Assembly: GCA_039714915.1 (NCBI GenBank)
Contig: JBDLIM010000001.1
Span: 149,300-213,299 of the forward strand
Length of the DNA: 64,000 bases
From: Bacteroidota bacterium
GTDB lineage: Bacteria; Bacteroidota; Bacteroidia; Bacteroidales; GCA-2748055
Direction of reading: 5' to 3'
Of this stretch, positions 1-39,498 are shown in pieces (position 1 is the first letter of the stretch; the number at the start of each line of letters is the position of its first letter). Both the position numbers and the translations under genes were made by a program. The notes under the pieces were generated by a model, which ran no database searches, was not told where the DNA came from, and saw only the letters and a list, made by a program, of their open reading frames with translations.

Positions 1-531
1 GATCGCTGCAGGATTGAACAGCTTAGCGGGCTGGATCATGAGAATGGGGACCTTATCAATCGTCTGCAGAAACCATCTCTTTTTCGAAGAGATGTGGAGA
101 TATTTAACTGGATTCTTAATTATCCGTGGGTTACAGAAGACACCAGGGATGAGCTGGACTATCATTTTTCCTATCAGTCCGAGCGCTTTGAAAATATTTT
201 GCTGGCTTTCACCTTACCCGATCAGAGCAGGGGCCTGCTCTGGCTGGTAATGCATAACCAGGCCATGAGCGTTCCTTACCTGTGGACAGAAAGCGATCTC
301 CTTTATCCTTTTATGGCAAGAACGGTGATCCATTACATGATTTCAAAGGATTGCGCATACACCACCATCCGGCATGCAGCCCTGACAGCACAACTATCGC
401 TTCATAAAAAGCTTTTCCTCAGCGTCAGGGAGATACCTCAACTCATCTTTGCGCATAAAGCGATGAGAAAGCAGGTTCCCTGCGACCGGGAAATACAGGA
501 TGGGGACGGGGATGTGGTTTTTACCGGATGA
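1..531 (+). CDS. 5'-partial conserved hypothetical protein (possible GNAT-like, cell-surface polysaccharide associated)
   Basis: Frame 1 is open from base 1 (DRCRIEQL...) through the listed ORF 94..531. It ends in a ...IQDGDGDVVFTG C-terminus and converges on a deacetylase/GNAT pair. Confidence 0.6.
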   Translation, partial: DRCRIEQLSGLDHENGDLINRLQKPSLFRRDVEIFNWILNYPWVTEDTRDELDYHFSYQSERFENILLAFTLPDQSRGLLWLVMHNQAMSVPYLWTESDLLYPFMARTVIHYMISKDCAYTTIRHAALTAQLSLHKKLFLSVREIPQLIFAHKAMRKQVPCDREIQDGDGDVVFTG

Positions 532-533
532 TT
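513..533 (+). repeat. Direct repeat (gene-proximal copy) flanking element copy 1; includes the host stop codon
   Basis: TGTGGTTTTTACCGGATGATT is repeated at 994-1013 with one T fewer. Confidence 0.85.
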
Positions 534-663
534 TCTGTGTGTTTTGCCGCTCTTTACCGTTGGCGTCAGGAAGAAGTTCGGTTTTTATGGCTGTCAACTC
601 TGCAATTTTCCCAAGCATCCCGGAGAAGAGCTCATCTTCTCTCTGATTTGACGCACGTTGGTA

Positions 664-715
664 TCGAGCCAGATCCAAACATCTATTTCGCGCCAGATCC
701 AAATATCTTTTTCGA
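664..715 (+). repeat. 24-bp tandem repeat (about 2 units) inside the element
   Basis: TCGAGCCAGATCCAAACATCTATT / TCGCGCCAGATCCAAATATCTTTT / TCGA; homologous pair at 38013-38064. Confidence 0.85.
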
Positions 716-790
716 TCTCAACAAGCTTATATAGACCCTGATTGCAAAAAGCACAATCCTGTAAAAATACGTCCCGTACGAATGCGATAT

Positions 791-910
791 GGTTATTGAT
801 TATCCATCAAACCACTAAATCGATGTCATTGACGATAATAAATAACCCTCGGGGGTTAAATATTATCTTCAAAGCACCTAAAACACATACAAACAAGATA
901 ATAAATAACC
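791..910. repeat. Array of four 14-bp GATAATAAATAACC-type motifs in alternating orientation, 63-bp period
   Basis: Motifs at 791-804 (rev), 834-847 (fwd), 854-867 (rev), 897-910 (fwd); gaps of 29, 6 and 29 bp. Confidence 0.85.
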
Positions 911-993
911 ATGTTATGAGAAATTTTATGAACTGGGATATATTTAGCTAGATATGGGAAATAATGTAAAGGTGCTGCATTGACGAAAACAGG

Positions 994-1013
994 TGTGGTT
1001 TTACCGGATGATT
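994..1013 (+). repeat. Direct repeat (distal copy) flanking element copy 1
   Basis: TGTGGTTTTACCGGATGATT matches 513-533. Confidence 0.85.
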
Positions 1014-1036: not shown

Positions 1037-2032
1037 CTAGGTGATTTTGTTCCGCCCTATGAGTCCCTTCAACAGGTAATACAGGTATTCGGTTTTCAAT
1101 GCTTCCCGGGCCGGGCATTCATACTCCTCCATGGGAATTCTCTGGATAAATCCGGTCTTGTCCGTCTTTTTCAGGCCGGCTGTTCCCATTAATACCTCGG
1201 CCACTCCCTTGTCCAGGAGGCTGTGGATGACTTCCATGGGAATGCCAGCACTGGTAAAAGGAAAGGAGAAGTAGCGGGTGCTAAGCTGGAATCTGGCCTG
1301 CAGGTCTTCCACACTGGACCTTACCTGCTTTACAATCTCCTTTTGATCTAATTTTGAAAAATCCGCATGATCGGGGGAGTGCCCGCCTATCTCAAATCCC
1401 CAGTCTACCAGGTCCATGACCTGCTTTGTATTCATGTAAACCGGCCTTTCCTTCATGTACCCTGTCACATCGATCCCTGTCTCTTTCATCAGGGCATCCA
1501 GCAGAGACACCTGGTCCTGGCCAATCAACAGGATGGATTCCACCGCCCTTTTTTCAGGAATATCCAGATAGCCAGCCATAGCTTCCATGACCTTTGTATC
1601 AGATTTCATTTTCTCGATCAGAAGGCTGGCTTTGTACCTATAGAAGAGATCCCTGTTATCTATGAAGTGGTTATTCAGAAAAAATGCCGCCGGCACTCCC
1701 TTTTTCTTTAACAACGGAGCAATGAAATCGCGACATTCAACCAGTCCATCATCAAAACTAAGCACCATATATTGTTTTCCGGCATGCAGCCCGGATCCTT
1801 CCAGGTAGTCTGCAAAACTGATGGGTTCAAAGTAAAGCAGCATCTCATCCAGGTCCTTTTCAAACTCACGTTCGGTCCTTAAGGTATAGAGATTGCTTAT
1901 ATGAGGCAGGGGCTGACCTGACACCGTATGGTAAAAGGGGAATGCTACTTTCTGGCTGGAAAGCCGGATTAATCTGTTAAGGCTTGCTAACCTGGCAGGT
2001 CCCGATATGATTTTTCTGTTCCTGTCAATCAT
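1037..2032 (-). CDS. Polysaccharide deacetylase (CE4/NodB-like)
   Basis: LSFDDG, EIGGHSPDH and FSFPF motifs. Confidence 0.85.
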   Translation of the reverse strand: MIDRNRKIISGPARLASLNRLIRLSSQKVAFPFYHTVSGQPLPHISNLYTLRTEREFEKDLDEMLLYFEPISFADYLEGSGLHAGKQYMVLSFDDGLVECRDFIAPLLKKKGVPAAFFLNNHFIDNRDLFYRYKASLLIEKMKSDTKVMEAMAGYLDIPEKRAVESILLIGQDQVSLLDALMKETGIDVTGYMKERPVYMNTKQVMDLVDWGFEIGGHSPDHADFSKLDQKEIVKQVRSSVEDLQARFQLSTRYFSFPFTSAGIPMEVIHSLLDKGVAEVLMGTAGLKKTDKTGFIQRIPMEEYECPAREALKTEYLYYLLKGLIGRNKIT

Positions 2033-36393: not shown

Positions 36394-37401
36394 CTACTTC
36401 AAGGGAAAAGCAATGATTGTCTGCCATTTTGCCGGATCCGATTCGGTCATTATTCCGGTCACATAAAACTCAAATGCTTCCCCCGAAACCTCCAGGCCAT
36501 TTTCTTGTATGTACGCATCCATCTTCTCATACGAATTGGTAAACTCTTCATAGGGTCCGGTATGAGTAGCCTTCACAATTTTCATCTCGGGATAGCTTAC
36601 CGACTCCACGCCCCCGGCAGATTTGCCATTAGCTGCCACCTGGAAACCGGCCCGGTAATTGGAATGACCGGTGGCTTCATCATAATCCAGGTAATGCACA
36701 AAGGCAGGTCCGGTCACCTGCAGTTGTTGTTTTTCAATTTCTGTAAAAATAGCTCCATACAACTCTCCCAGCTGCTGTCCAATGGTCTCCATGGTCCCTG
36801 CCCCGTCAGCCACCATAGCCGTAATTGCAGCCTGTGATTCAACAGATATGGAGCTCAGTGAGCTTTTGGGCCGGGGCAATGCTTCCAGGTATTCTTTCAG
36901 ATTGGTCAGCCCCGTTTCAAAACTCTGTTTCAGGAAAACCTTTCCAAACATCATTCCCAGTCGACCGATGGGGTATTTTGTCTTCTGTGAAAAGGACCAC
37001 ACCACATGTGTTCCACCGTCTGATGGTGTGAACTCCCACTCCACCAGGGAAGGTTCAGTCACCTCCCCAAACCATAGAGAGGATTCAATGTACTGGTTCT
37101 CTTTCACAGAAATGACTTCCATTCTTCCGGTTCCCACTTGCTCACCCTGCCAGGAATAGGTAGATCCAACAAATCCTGATTTTGGCTCAATTTCCGCATC
37201 AGCGGTGGAATCCATCGTCATCCATGGATCCCATAGATGCCGGTTCTTAAAGGAAGCCACAGCAGGAAATACCTGGGATGGATCCAGTGCAATCTCAGTT
37301 TCAGCACTTACTTCGGCTGTTGCAGGTGCGAAGAGTGGAATAATCAGGATGGCTGCTAATAGAATCCCGATAATGATCAAAATGATTTTCAGTGCTTTCA
37401 T
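36394..37401 (-). CDS. SRPBCC (polyketide cyclase-like) plus GyrI-like effector-binding domain protein
   Basis: N-terminal anchor, WDPW...GSTYSW...GTG, FETGLTNLK; C-terminal HTGPYE...E.Y. Confidence 0.8.
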   Translation of the reverse strand: MKALKIILIIIGILLAAILIIPLFAPATAEVSAETEIALDPSQVFPAVASFKNRHLWDPWMTMDSTADAEIEPKSGFVGSTYSWQGEQVGTGRMEVISVKENQYIESSLWFGEVTEPSLVEWEFTPSDGGTHVVWSFSQKTKYPIGRLGMMFGKVFLKQSFETGLTNLKEYLEALPRPKSSLSSISVESQAAITAMVADGAGTMETIGQQLGELYGAIFTEIEKQQLQVTGPAFVHYLDYDEATGHSNYRAGFQVAANGKSAGGVESVSYPEMKIVKATHTGPYEEFTNSYEKMDAYIQENGLEVSGEAFEFYVTGIMTESDPAKWQTIIAFPLK

Positions 37402-37446: not shown

Positions 37447-37577
37447 CAAACGATACAAGTCAATGACCGGGAAGAAACTTTTGCGCTGCCAGGCGGTCCA
37501 TTTTCATGGAGGAATTCCTGGGAATTTCAGGGGTGGTATAAATGTGTTTAGGATGCTCATAGGCAGGCAGGATGGCT
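37447..37577. repeat. 131-bp direct repeat: displaced copy of the menE 3' end plus 13 bp downstream
   Basis: Identical to 38394-38524 except one substitution (37554 T vs 38501 A). Confidence 0.95.
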
Positions 37578-38393
37578 CTTAAGCCTGGTGGTTGTAATAC
37601 CAATCCATGAATCTGCATATCTGAGTGGTATCCGATATAGTATTCTTTCTTATGCATTATGTATTTAGCCAGCTGGTACCCGTCAGGAACATAGGATTCC
37701 GGGTCGGCATGGATTGGAACAAACTGGTTTATCCACGTCACCTCCTGATAGCTAAAACGATCCCTGCCCGAAAATGTCTAATCTTATCCCATTTCATAAA
37801 ATTTCTCATAACATGGTTATTTATTATCTTGTTTGTATGTGTTTTAGGTGCTTTGAAGATAATATTTAACCCCCGAGGGTTATTTATTATCGTCAATGAC
37901 ATCGATTTAGTGGTCTGATGGATAATAAATAGCCATACCGCATTCGTACGGGACGTTTTTTTACAGGATTGTGCTTATTATAGCAATCAGGGTCTATATA
38001 AGCTTGTAGAGATCGACATAGAAATTTGGGTCTGGAGCGAAATAGAAACTTGGATCTGGATCGATAAAAACGTTCTGCAAATCAGAGAGAAAATGACCTC
38101 TTCTCCGGGACGCTTGGGAAAATTGAATTACGCTCGCGCATTGACTGCGTCGAGCTTCGCTTCGCTACGGTTAGCTCCGCTGAGCTCGTAAACTCGGTTC
38201 TCCGAATTCTACTTCGGGGTTAGCGAGCACAAATAAAATAAAAAATTAATCGATGATTGGCTAACCGATCTTTGCTTCCTCGCGGCAAGCCAAGGAGAGT
38301 CAAAAGTTGACGGCCATGAAAACCGAACTTCATCTTAATGCCAACGGTAAAGAGCGGCAAAACACGCAGAAATCCATACGGAAAACACTACAG
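37578..38393 (-). mobile_element. Dispersed non-autonomous element, copy 2 (unknown family)
   Basis: Reverse-complement homology to 530-940. It carries an extra 179-bp module and a longer unique tail, and is bracketed by the 131-bp direct repeat. Confidence 0.78.
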
Positions 38394-38524
38394 CAAACGA
38401 TACAAGTCAATGACCGGGAAGAAACTTTTGCGCTGCCAGGCGGTCCATTTTCATGGAGGAATTCCTGGGAATTTCAGGGGTGGTATAAATGTGTTTAGGA
38501 AGCTCATAGGCAGGCAGGATGGCT
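38394..38524. repeat. 131-bp direct repeat, gene-resident copy
   Basis: Matches 37447-37577. Confidence 0.95.
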
Positions 38525-39498
38525 TTCATTGCCTCAAACCATTCTTCCAGGGGAGGATTCTCCTCTGTTGTCTCCACCAACAGTACCAAACGGCTTCCCA
38601 GCCGGTCATCGGGTTCGGGGAGAACCAGGCTGTTTTGCCTGATGACAAGCCTGATTTGCTGTTCCAGCATCTCGGGAATGATTTTAATCCCCCCCGAATT
38701 AATCACGTGATCATACCTGCCCAGCCATTTAAACATCTGTCCCGATGGATCAATCTCCACCAGGTCGTTTGTTGTAACCGGTCCCTCGGTAATTCCCTGC
38801 ACATCTACCACCAGGCAATTTCGCTGGTCCTGACTGATCTCAACTCCTTCAAACACTCTGAATCCCCTGTCGGGATTGGGTCCGCTTATTCTTTTCAATG
38901 CAAAATGGGTATAGGTTTCGCTCATGCCAAAGGACTCATAGACTGCAGTTTGCTCAAGCCGGGACAAGTGCTTTAAGGAAGCATATTGAAGTTTTCCACC
39001 TCCTATAAGAAGGGTCGAAATGTTTGCGAAATCATCCCCATGAACCAGGGATTCGTGTACCTGCAGGGGTACCATGGCTGCAAATGCAAGCGCCTCTTTC
39101 AGATCCCTGGCCGGTCTGCCTGAGGGCTCCGTTAATACAAGATCAAGTCCACCCACCAGTGCCCTGACCACCATAAGCTTGCCAGCCACATACCTCATGG
39201 GCAAACAGTGAAGCACCCTGTCGCCGGGAGCCAGTTTAAAAAAGTCCAGGGTTTTCCTGGCGCTGCGGATCAGGGATTGCCTATGGAGAATATGTATACG
39301 GGGATCACCCGTAGTTCCACTGGTTTTCTGGATAACTTCTCCGCGGGAGGGATCAAGAAACAGGTCGATAAATGCAAGCACTTCCTTCTTCCATTCCGGA
39401 TACTCCTTATCCCCTGCTCCGCGATGGCAATACTCAAGCAGCTGATCACGGTCAAATGATCTTCCATCCAGCTGAAAATCTTTGTTCACATCAATCAT
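38407..39498 (-). CDS. menE: O-succinylbenzoate-CoA ligase (short Bacteroidota type)
   Basis: TSGTTG, AMVPLQV, FGMSET, GRYDHVINSGGIKI; last gene of the men cluster. Confidence 0.88.
   Translation of the reverse strand: MIDVNKDFQLDGRSFDRDQLLEYCHRGAGDKEYPEWKKEVLAFIDLFLDPSRGEVIQKTSGTTGDPRIHILHRQSLIRSARKTLDFFKLAPGDRVLHCLPMRYVAGKLMVVRALVGGLDLVLTEPSGRPARDLKEALAFAAMVPLQVHESLVHGDDFANISTLLIGGGKLQYASLKHLSRLEQTAVYESFGMSETYTHFALKRISGPNPDRGFRVFEGVEISQDQRNCLVVDVQGITEGPVTTNDLVEIDPSGQMFKWLGRYDHVINSGGIKIIPEMLEQQIRLVIRQNSLVLPEPDDRLGSRLVLLVETTEENPPLEEWFEAMKAILPAYELPKHIYTTPEIPRNSSMKMDRLAAQKFLPGH

Follow-up and report, generated by a model that had tools for sequence, protein, structure and literature searches.

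Mobile insertion cassettes (MICs) lack a transposase and carry passenger genes between the ends of a cognate insertion sequence (IS), as MIC231 does with those of IS231, and AbiE is a type IV toxin-antitoxin system in which antitoxin and toxin make no contact. Insertion sequences of the IS1634 family have ends with the consensus C-----YT and duplicate, as a rule, 5-6 bp of AT-rich target, while IS1634 and IS1549 have been described as having 'long, variable-length DRs' (direct repeats) of 8-514 bp (PMC2266710, including its Table 1). This 2008 survey of IS4-related families states that there is no mechanistic model for IS1634-type duplications of tens to hundreds of base pairs, and it describes MIC-type modularity as unseen outside the IS231 subgroup (PMC2266710). 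Restriction-modification units are also flanked by target repeats, of 46-423 bp and often over start or stop codons, by a mechanism described as unknown (PMC2853133). Here we describe two copies of a dispersed repeat, copy 1 and copy 2, in a stretch of 64,000 nucleotides (the window) from contig JBDLIM010000001.1 of a Bacteroidota genome assembly, each of which lies between two copies of the 3' end of a host gene. We consider it probable, at roughly three chances in four, that both are decayed, gene-less derivatives, resembling miniature inverted-repeat transposable elements (MITEs), of a cassette that has IS1634-family ends and AbiEi-like and PLD-like passenger genes, and that they were moved in trans by an IS1634-type transposase.

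Copies 1 and 2 match each other in inverted orientation (530-947 against 37778-38374) over three blocks of 86-95% identity (Table 1). This agrees with the first-pass annotation of the window, which had also described flanking duplications of ~21 and 131 bp, unrelated in sequence; both include the host stop codon and are borne out by alignment and by empty sites in relatives. The two copies of the duplicated stretch are identical at 20 of 21 positions at copy 1, with one 1-nt indel (local alignment score 17; highest score among 200 shuffles 11.5), and at 99.2% of 131 nt at copy 2. At both sites the left copy is the native gene end. The C terminus of the copy-1 host protein, ...DGDGDVVFTG*, is kept in all eight matching loci among nine related loci checked, and in G020 and G044, two relatives, the AMP-binding enzyme gene next to copy 2 is joined directly to the GyrI-like/SRPBCC gene, with the element absent and the 131-bp stretch present once. 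Because the duplicated target spans the gene 3' end, the host genes are left intact, as had been proposed.

Table 1. Positions of the repeat copies, their parts and their insertion sites within the window
Feature	Position	Strand	Remarks
Inverted match, block 1	746-947 / 37778-37979		202 nt, 95%
Inverted match, block 2	603-750 / 37978-38125		148 nt, 86%
Inverted match, block 3	530-599 / 38305-38374		70 nt, 90%
Copy-1 target duplication, left copy	513-533	+	Native 3' end of host gene; open reading frame ends at 531, stop codon TGA 529-531
Copy 1	534-993	+	460-bp non-coding derivative of the AbiEi/PLD cassette; canonical PLD-side end missing
Remnant of 3' part of PLD-like gene in copy 1	534-657	-	Left terminus begins at internal motif TCTGTGTGTTTTGCCG, resembling a terminal inverted repeat (terminus alignment)
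Core (most conserved part)	740-947		Intergenic region between the two divergent cassette genes plus first AbiEi-like codons (ATG ~919-933)
Palindrome	834-867		GATAATAAATAACCC-TC-GGGGTTAAATATTATC; operator-like site; related palindromes at the same position in relatives
Canonical terminal inverted repeat, AbiEi-side end of copy 1	981-993	+	TGACGAAAACAGG, the reverse complement of CCTGTTTTCGTCA
Copy-1 target duplication, right copy	994-1013	+	23 nt ahead of the stop codon of the next gene (convergent; polysaccharide deacetylase)
Polysaccharide deacetylase gene	1037-2032	-	Convergent neighbour of copy 1
Copy-2 target duplication (131 bp), right copy	37447-37577	-	Next come the original intergenic spacer and the GyrI-like/SRPBCC gene 36394-37401
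Copy 2	37578-38393	-	816-bp derivative; left terminus begins at internal motif CTGTAGTGTTTTCCG, resembling a terminal inverted repeat
AbiEi-like gene remnant in copy 2	37578-37790	-	~Residues 60-105 (...PIHADPESYVPDGYQLAKYIMHKKEYYIGY...)
Nested insert in copy 2	~38126-38304		179 bp, from another dispersed repeat family
Copy-2 target duplication (131 bp), left copy	38394-38524	-	Native 3' end of AMP-binding enzyme gene 38407-39498 (Pfam); 115 nt coding, stop codon and 13 nt past the stop

The assembly that contains the window (G000) consists of 159 contigs, is 97.5% complete by marker genes and has many breaks within the family repeat. When the copy-1 sequence was searched against it, 27 matches at 17 loci were obtained, many of them at contig ends. 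The family has 13-bp terminal inverted repeats (TIRs), CCTGTTTTCGTCA and CCTGTCTTCATCA. In an alignment of ten copies, copy 1 and the copies on contigs C69, C100 and C138 have the canonical end ...CTGCATTGACGAAAACAG(G), whereas C69, C52 and C146 and, after 7 extra nt, C100 have the opposite one, CCTGTTTTCCG.... The first-pass annotation had reported no terminal inverted repeats and unique tails. In fact the right end of copy 1 is itself a canonical TIR, and the tails of both copies recur elsewhere in the genome (C146, C138, C69). Copies 1 and 2 lack ~150 nt at the CCTGTTTTCCG-type end, and copy 2 also breaks off within the AbiEi-like gene at its right end, so that it keeps neither canonical TIR. 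The left termini of the two copies begin exactly at two adjacent internal motifs, CTGTnnTGTTTTnCCG (CTGTAGTGTTTTCCG in copy 2, TCTGTGTGTTTTGCCG in copy 1), which resemble the TIR, and there is 4-nt microhomology at the junctions (TTTG in copy 2, GATT in copy 1). Judged from these sequences, transposition of the two copies via internal pseudo-ends is plausible, although for the TIR-like motifs as functional ends the coincidence is only suggestive. A tblastn match of copy 1 to residues 203-248 of protein P0001 continues into the flank as far as window position 520. The only long copy in the genome, C112, which reaches a contig end, carries an open reading frame (ORF) of 293 amino acids for a PLD-like protein on the opposite strand. 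From this long copy and the alignment of ten copies, we conclude that the two window copies arose from a ~2.3-kb unit by internal deletion.

Complete units were found in G065, a long-read metagenome-assembled genome (MAG), where three units have ~2.27 kb in common at 92-98% identity and each full unit carries only two genes, which are divergent and encode an AbiEi-like and a PLD-like protein. The first-pass annotation had suggested looking for a long copy with a reverse transcriptase, HUH/Rep or recombinase gene; the full units contain no reverse transcriptase or Rep gene. The AbiEi-like partner (270-300 amino acids) matches the PADLOC AbiEi models over its full length (E 5.8e-60, residues 4-265); it scores 28 bits against NCBIfam TAA_AbiEi, under the cut-off of 150, and matches Pfam AbiEi_1 weakly. 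The N-terminal domain of the PLD-like protein encoded by C112 scores 25.9 bits against Pfam PLDc_2, slightly below the cut-off of 27, and this protein has weak matches to DpdK (NCBIfam, PADLOC) and to DrmC and MkoB (PADLOC). The HKD-like residues H84, K86, N90, E91, S98 and N100 are invariant in all 35 aligned homologues, and the protein has both the HxK...N/D...GSxN motif and the PLD fold of the PLD/HKD nuclease superfamily. In a Foldseek search with the N-terminal domain, taken from a structure model that is weak overall (mean predicted local distance difference test, pLDDT, 62), the top match was SauUSI (E 1.6e-5), ahead of PLD3/4, Zucchini, Nuc and NucT; when solved structures were searched by sequence with the PLD-like profile, nothing relevant came up. 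Its motif and modelled fold give the PLD-like protein the appearance of an active nuclease.

Modelling also supports the idea that the two proteins bind each other. The predicted AbiEi-like/PLD-like complex has an ipSAE of 0.62, a value attained by 58 of 80 solved complexes and by two of 110 mismatched pairs, and the best control reached 0.00. Contact agreement between model runs was at least 60% and partner pLDDT at least 85, and in the predicted interface the AbiEi-like protein touches, with its C-terminal domain, the C-terminal half of its PLD-like partner. The pair resembles AbiE in its full-length PADLOC AbiEi match and in the operator-like palindrome upstream of the regulator gene, to which the AbiEi-like protein may bind. 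It differs from AbiE in that the partner is a PLD/HKD-type nuclease and not an AbiEii (DUF1814) nucleotidyltransferase, no ORF for which is present in the full units, in that the genes are divergent and form no operon, and in that direct binding is predicted.

The two genes usually occur together: among the 63 loci where 1100 nt or more precede the PLD-like gene, a divergent AbiEi-like gene was found at 49. The remaining 14 have either been broken up by other kinds of mobile DNA or hold a more distant PLD-like gene in a different context. At two loci the AbiEi-like gene is, by eye, swapped for another ORF, one resembling a group II intron reverse transcriptase (L096, a metagenome contig) and one resembling another transposase (L074); the cassettes are themselves targeted by other mobile DNA. 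Homologues of the PLD-like protein number 406 at E <=0.001, most of them on contigs of 1-3 kb, and among the 120 listed all those with a source name are called 'hypothetical protein', with names pointing to Bacteroidota. Matches were found in 9 of 24 sampled genomes of the same genus and in none of 16 genomes of other families of the order. Phage records contained no match, and plasmid records contained only 26%-identical Hymenobacter homologues in another gene context. Near-identical units differ in the copy number of short tandem repeats, including SEAK/SEAR-coding repeats in the AbiEi-like linker (L075, L078, L079) and CAGACAAAATCC-type repeats near the PLD-side end (L075, L076, L078).

The link to the IS1634 family, for which IS1634 of Mycoplasma mycoides and IS1549 of Mycobacterium smegmatis serve as reference elements, comes from the ends. 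A scan of G065 for the TIRs yielded further pairs, one of which bounds a 1653-bp element (G065 C6:239034-240686) abutted by a ~118-bp repeat. Against the NCBIfam IS1634-family transposase model (cut-off 100 bits), its ORFs score 198 bits plus a second piece of 86 bits, and Pfam DDE_Tnp_1 is matched as well. A 1620-bp element with the same TIRs and a 91% identical transposase is present in G045, a member of the window's genus, and lies one base past a stop codon. These insertion sequences can be aligned with the AbiEi/PLD units at each end, for ~45 nt at one terminus and ~100 nt at the opposite one, and the TIR CCTGTTTTCGTCA fits the IS1634-family consensus. An element of unrecognised kind, as had been suggested, is not supported: the termini are those of IS1634-family insertion sequences. 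Because copy 1, copy 2 and the 2.3-kb units have no IS1634-family transposase gene, while the same-ended elements of G065 and G045 encode one, the window copies are to be regarded as derivatives and not as insertion sequences in their own right. They differ from the IS1634 reference elements also in their hosts, which are Bacteroidota from marine and other metagenomes. In their TIRs of a cognate IS, their lack of a transposase, the presence (full units, as in MICs) or absence (window copies, as in MITEs) of passenger genes and their presumed mobilisation in trans, the members of the family resemble MIC231 and MITEs; copy 1 retains one canonical end and copy 2 none, and the cognate family is IS1634 rather than IS231. 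Internally deleted derivatives of 420-490 bp with target duplications are a further MITE-like trait. Within the library searched, no paper on a PLD- or AbiEi-linked transposon, or on IS1634 cassettes or MITEs of Bacteroidetes, came to light.

Direct repeats abut 11 of the 16 insertions examined and range from 21 to 236 bp. They measure 21 bp at copy 1; 33 bp, perfect, at L112; 35 bp at C69; 40 bp at L174, a 488-bp derivative; 41 bp, 90% identical, at C100, where the left repeat stands 7 extra nt away from the TIR; 70 bp at L086; 81 bp at L200, a 477-bp derivative; 116 bp at L095 (L097 is the same site); ~118 bp at the transposase-bearing element of G065; 131 bp at copy 2; and 236 bp, 99.6% identical, at L078, in a long-read assembly. 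Shuffled flanks, used as controls, never scored above 16. The repeats are unrelated in sequence between sites. Such lengths fall within the 8-514 bp reported for IS1634 and IS1549 in the 2008 survey (PMC2266710), and do not support the premise of the first-pass annotation that DDE elements typically give short fixed target-site duplications and so do not fit well; long duplications are frequent here, in contrast to the 5-6 bp rule given there for the family (PMC2266710). In all seven clear cases the duplicated target begins with A, and it mostly ends with T, giving junctions of the form T/CCTG...CAGG/A (slashes mark the element boundaries); this pattern may represent either a weak target preference or one extra base of the TIR.

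The duplicated stretch covers the 3' ends of convergent genes at copy 1 and L078, lies between convergent genes at L086, and covers the 3' end of one gene at copy 2 and L095. The orientation of the element relative to the stop codon varies. The same end, the PLD side, faces the stop codon at copies 1 and 2, as the first-pass annotation had noted, but this does not hold across the family, the AbiEi side facing it at L078. Where a duplication equals or exceeds the intergenic spacer in length, all genes stay intact only if the duplicated stretch covers a gene end. Survivorship can therefore account for the position of the elements behind stop codons, which probably reflects selection rather than targeting.

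Taken at the strength given above, the reading that we favour would work as follows. The mobile unit would be the ~2.3-kb cassette of an AbiEi-family winged-helix regulator or antitoxin and a PLD/HKD-type nuclease within IS1634-family TIRs, a mobile insertion cassette of the kind that MIC231 represents for IS231. A DDE transposase of the IS1634 family, acting in trans, would recognise the CCTGTTTTCGTCA ends or similar internal motifs and insert the element, opening the target strands at a wide and variable spacing, as documented for IS1634 and IS1549, and repair of the gaps would duplicate 20-240 bp of target. Where the duplicated stretch crosses a stop codon, one intact copy of the gene would survive, and probably for this reason survivors are seen at gene 3' ends, often between convergent genes. 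The proposal of the first-pass annotation that a non-autonomous element was mobilised in trans is thus most likely correct, with a different mover. Both the IS1634-type transposase as the actual mover and the origin of the long staggered opening are inferences.

Several observations weigh against this reading. Clean duplications flank both window copies even though copy 1 has only one canonical TIR and copy 2 has none. No direct repeat was found at C138, L076, L099, L195 or L225, five of the 16 insertions, and at L086 the duplication is only 74% identical although the element itself is 98% identical to another copy, a discrepancy for which gene conversion between element copies is one possibility. 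The window subfamily shares only 13 nt and ~24 nt of its two termini with the insertion sequences, and both transposase genes found with these ends are split into several ORFs. An intact transposase ORF of the same clade, of 511 amino acids, was seen in G062. No IS1634-family transposase was detected in the window's own assembly by family model, protein query, blastn or tblastx, the last two recovering only a 29-nt end fragment. Nor did any of the nine same-genus genomes with a PLD-like match contain a strong transposase match; weak or fragmentary ones were seen only in G003, G008, G012 and G021, and cassette and transposase are co-resident in a single genome, G065. The missing transposase is weak evidence, however, because short-read MAGs often lose multi-copy insertion sequences.

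The alternative that comes closest is a cassette that moves itself: the PLD-type nuclease, guided by its AbiEi-like DNA-binding partner, would nick the target at points far apart, and possibly the element ends as well, and the cassette would enter by the 'insertion with long target duplication' that has been inferred for restriction-modification units. The invariant HKD-like motif, the nuclease fold (in a weak model), the predicted binding of the two proteins, the three near-identical full units in one genome and the duplications at copies 1 and 2 despite their missing canonical TIRs all favour this idea. So does the precedent of restriction-modification units (Nobusato 2000; Furuta 2010), which are likewise selfish pairs encoding a nuclease, with repeats of tens to hundreds of base pairs that often lie across a start or stop codon (PMC2853133). 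Those units are reported without other features of mobile elements (PMC2853133), whereas the cassette described here has TIRs shared with an IS, many copies per genome and MITE-like derivatives. A self-mobilising PLD/AbiEi element was our leading idea until the same ends were found on transposase-bearing elements, which led us to demote it. The TIRs and subterminal sequence of the cassettes also enclose elements that encode a recognised transposase and neither PLD-like nor AbiEi-like proteins, one of them with its ~118-bp duplication; long variable duplications are already on record for the IS1634 transposase family (PMC2266710); and distant PLD-like homologues (33-47% identical) lie in other contexts without AbiEi-like genes, as does the 26%-identical Hymenobacter plasmid homologue. 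We therefore regard a self-moving cassette as unlikely. It is similarly doubtful that the AbiEi/PLD pair helps the transposase to make its wide target cuts, or drives insertion with long duplication on its own. If the pair were active in either way, the long duplications of IS1634-type elements and of restriction-modification units would be linked, and a PLD-fold nuclease would take a role in DNA transposition.

The mechanism suggested by the first-pass annotation, SINE-like (short interspersed element-like) target-primed reverse transcription or movement of single-stranded DNA by a HUH enzyme, is very improbable. The variable duplication lengths, the truncation of copies 1 and 2 at one end and the 4-nt microhomology at their junctions would agree with it, but the full-length relatives carry only AbiEi-like and PLD-like genes or, among the same-ended elements, an IS1634-family transposase, and hold no reverse transcriptase or Rep gene, although no genome-wide search was aimed at reverse transcriptase or HUH genes. 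Unlike SINEs and other retroelements without long terminal repeats, the family has TIRs and lacks an A-rich or other tail. Its truncation points fall on TIR-like internal motifs, and neither copy has an Rfam match at E up to 1.

We give equally little credence to the view that the repeats are metagenome mis-joins or integrase attachment (att) sites, for which a fragmented metagenome assembly with many copies at contig ends might speak. The empty sites in relatives are exactly syntenic, and long-read assemblies show the same pattern (236 bp at L078). In public sequencing runs, which are possibly from the source sample so that they do not count as independent support, a 299-nt unitig (37524-37822) bridges the right junction of copy 2 and the unitig depth of the duplicated stretch is about twice (~1.6-1.9x) that of its flanks, while the public-run contig pieces listed included no bridge across the left junction. 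As had been pointed out in the first-pass annotation, an integrase with one fixed att core fits poorly, since the repeats differ from site to site and the units have no integrase ORF. A diversity-generating retroelement, considered because of the 131-bp repeat, was rejected because that repeat has a single mismatch and extends over the stop codon and spacer, because a reverse transcriptase is absent from the neighbourhood and because relatives have empty sites.

Other parts of the genome contain pieces of the family or structures reminiscent of it. The core (740-947) is its most widely dispersed piece and occurs alone in other contexts (C16, C79, C102 and C120 of G000; C6, C7 and C8 of G065), lying in C120 between 31-nt direct repeats. 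At L193 (G000 C88:12647-13801), the sole Rpn/YhgA-like Transposase_31 gene of the genome (Pfam E 9e-32) lies within a 1017-bp insert that begins with a family-type end, CCTGTTTTCGTCATCGGGACAGCC, has no canonical TIR at its opposite end and is flanked by a 69-bp direct repeat of 90% identity; among random windows, 1 of 150 had a flanking repeat of at least 25 nt. At L194 (G000 C38:33018-34371), the 3' end of an ORF of 389 amino acids falls within a perfect 67-bp direct repeat; we take the ORF, from its appearance by eye and without a family search, to encode an aldo-keto reductase. The repeat encloses 1220 bp, comprising a gene of 374 amino acids without clear family and a 67-nt fragment of the AbiEi-side end, and L194 may represent an aberrant or one-ended event that took along a neighbouring gene. 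Pieces of the family to which the nested insert of copy 2 belongs are found on ~17 other contigs (among them C17, C62, C36, C34, C5 and C4) and at a second site on C1. In contigs with sides of only 25-28 nt, this insert also occurs in a 176-nt skipped form, which may stem from other copies and was not used.

What is new here is an IS1634-type cassette with an AbiEi-regulator and PLD-nuclease passenger, together with its MITE-like derivatives in Bacteroidota; long target duplications themselves were already known. For annotation, the gene-tail duplications at 513-1013 and 37447-38524 would be footprints of an IS1634-ended family and not of a new class of element. The many natural insertions with 21-236 bp duplications, matched empty sites and MITE-like forms are good material for assays of mechanism, and the value of the family lies in the number of its long-duplication events, which bear on an unexplained step of transposition, and in the passenger pair itself. 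If our reading is correct, a defence- or addiction-like gene pair, whose products are predicted to bind each other, spreads among these bacteria as a transposase-less cassette.

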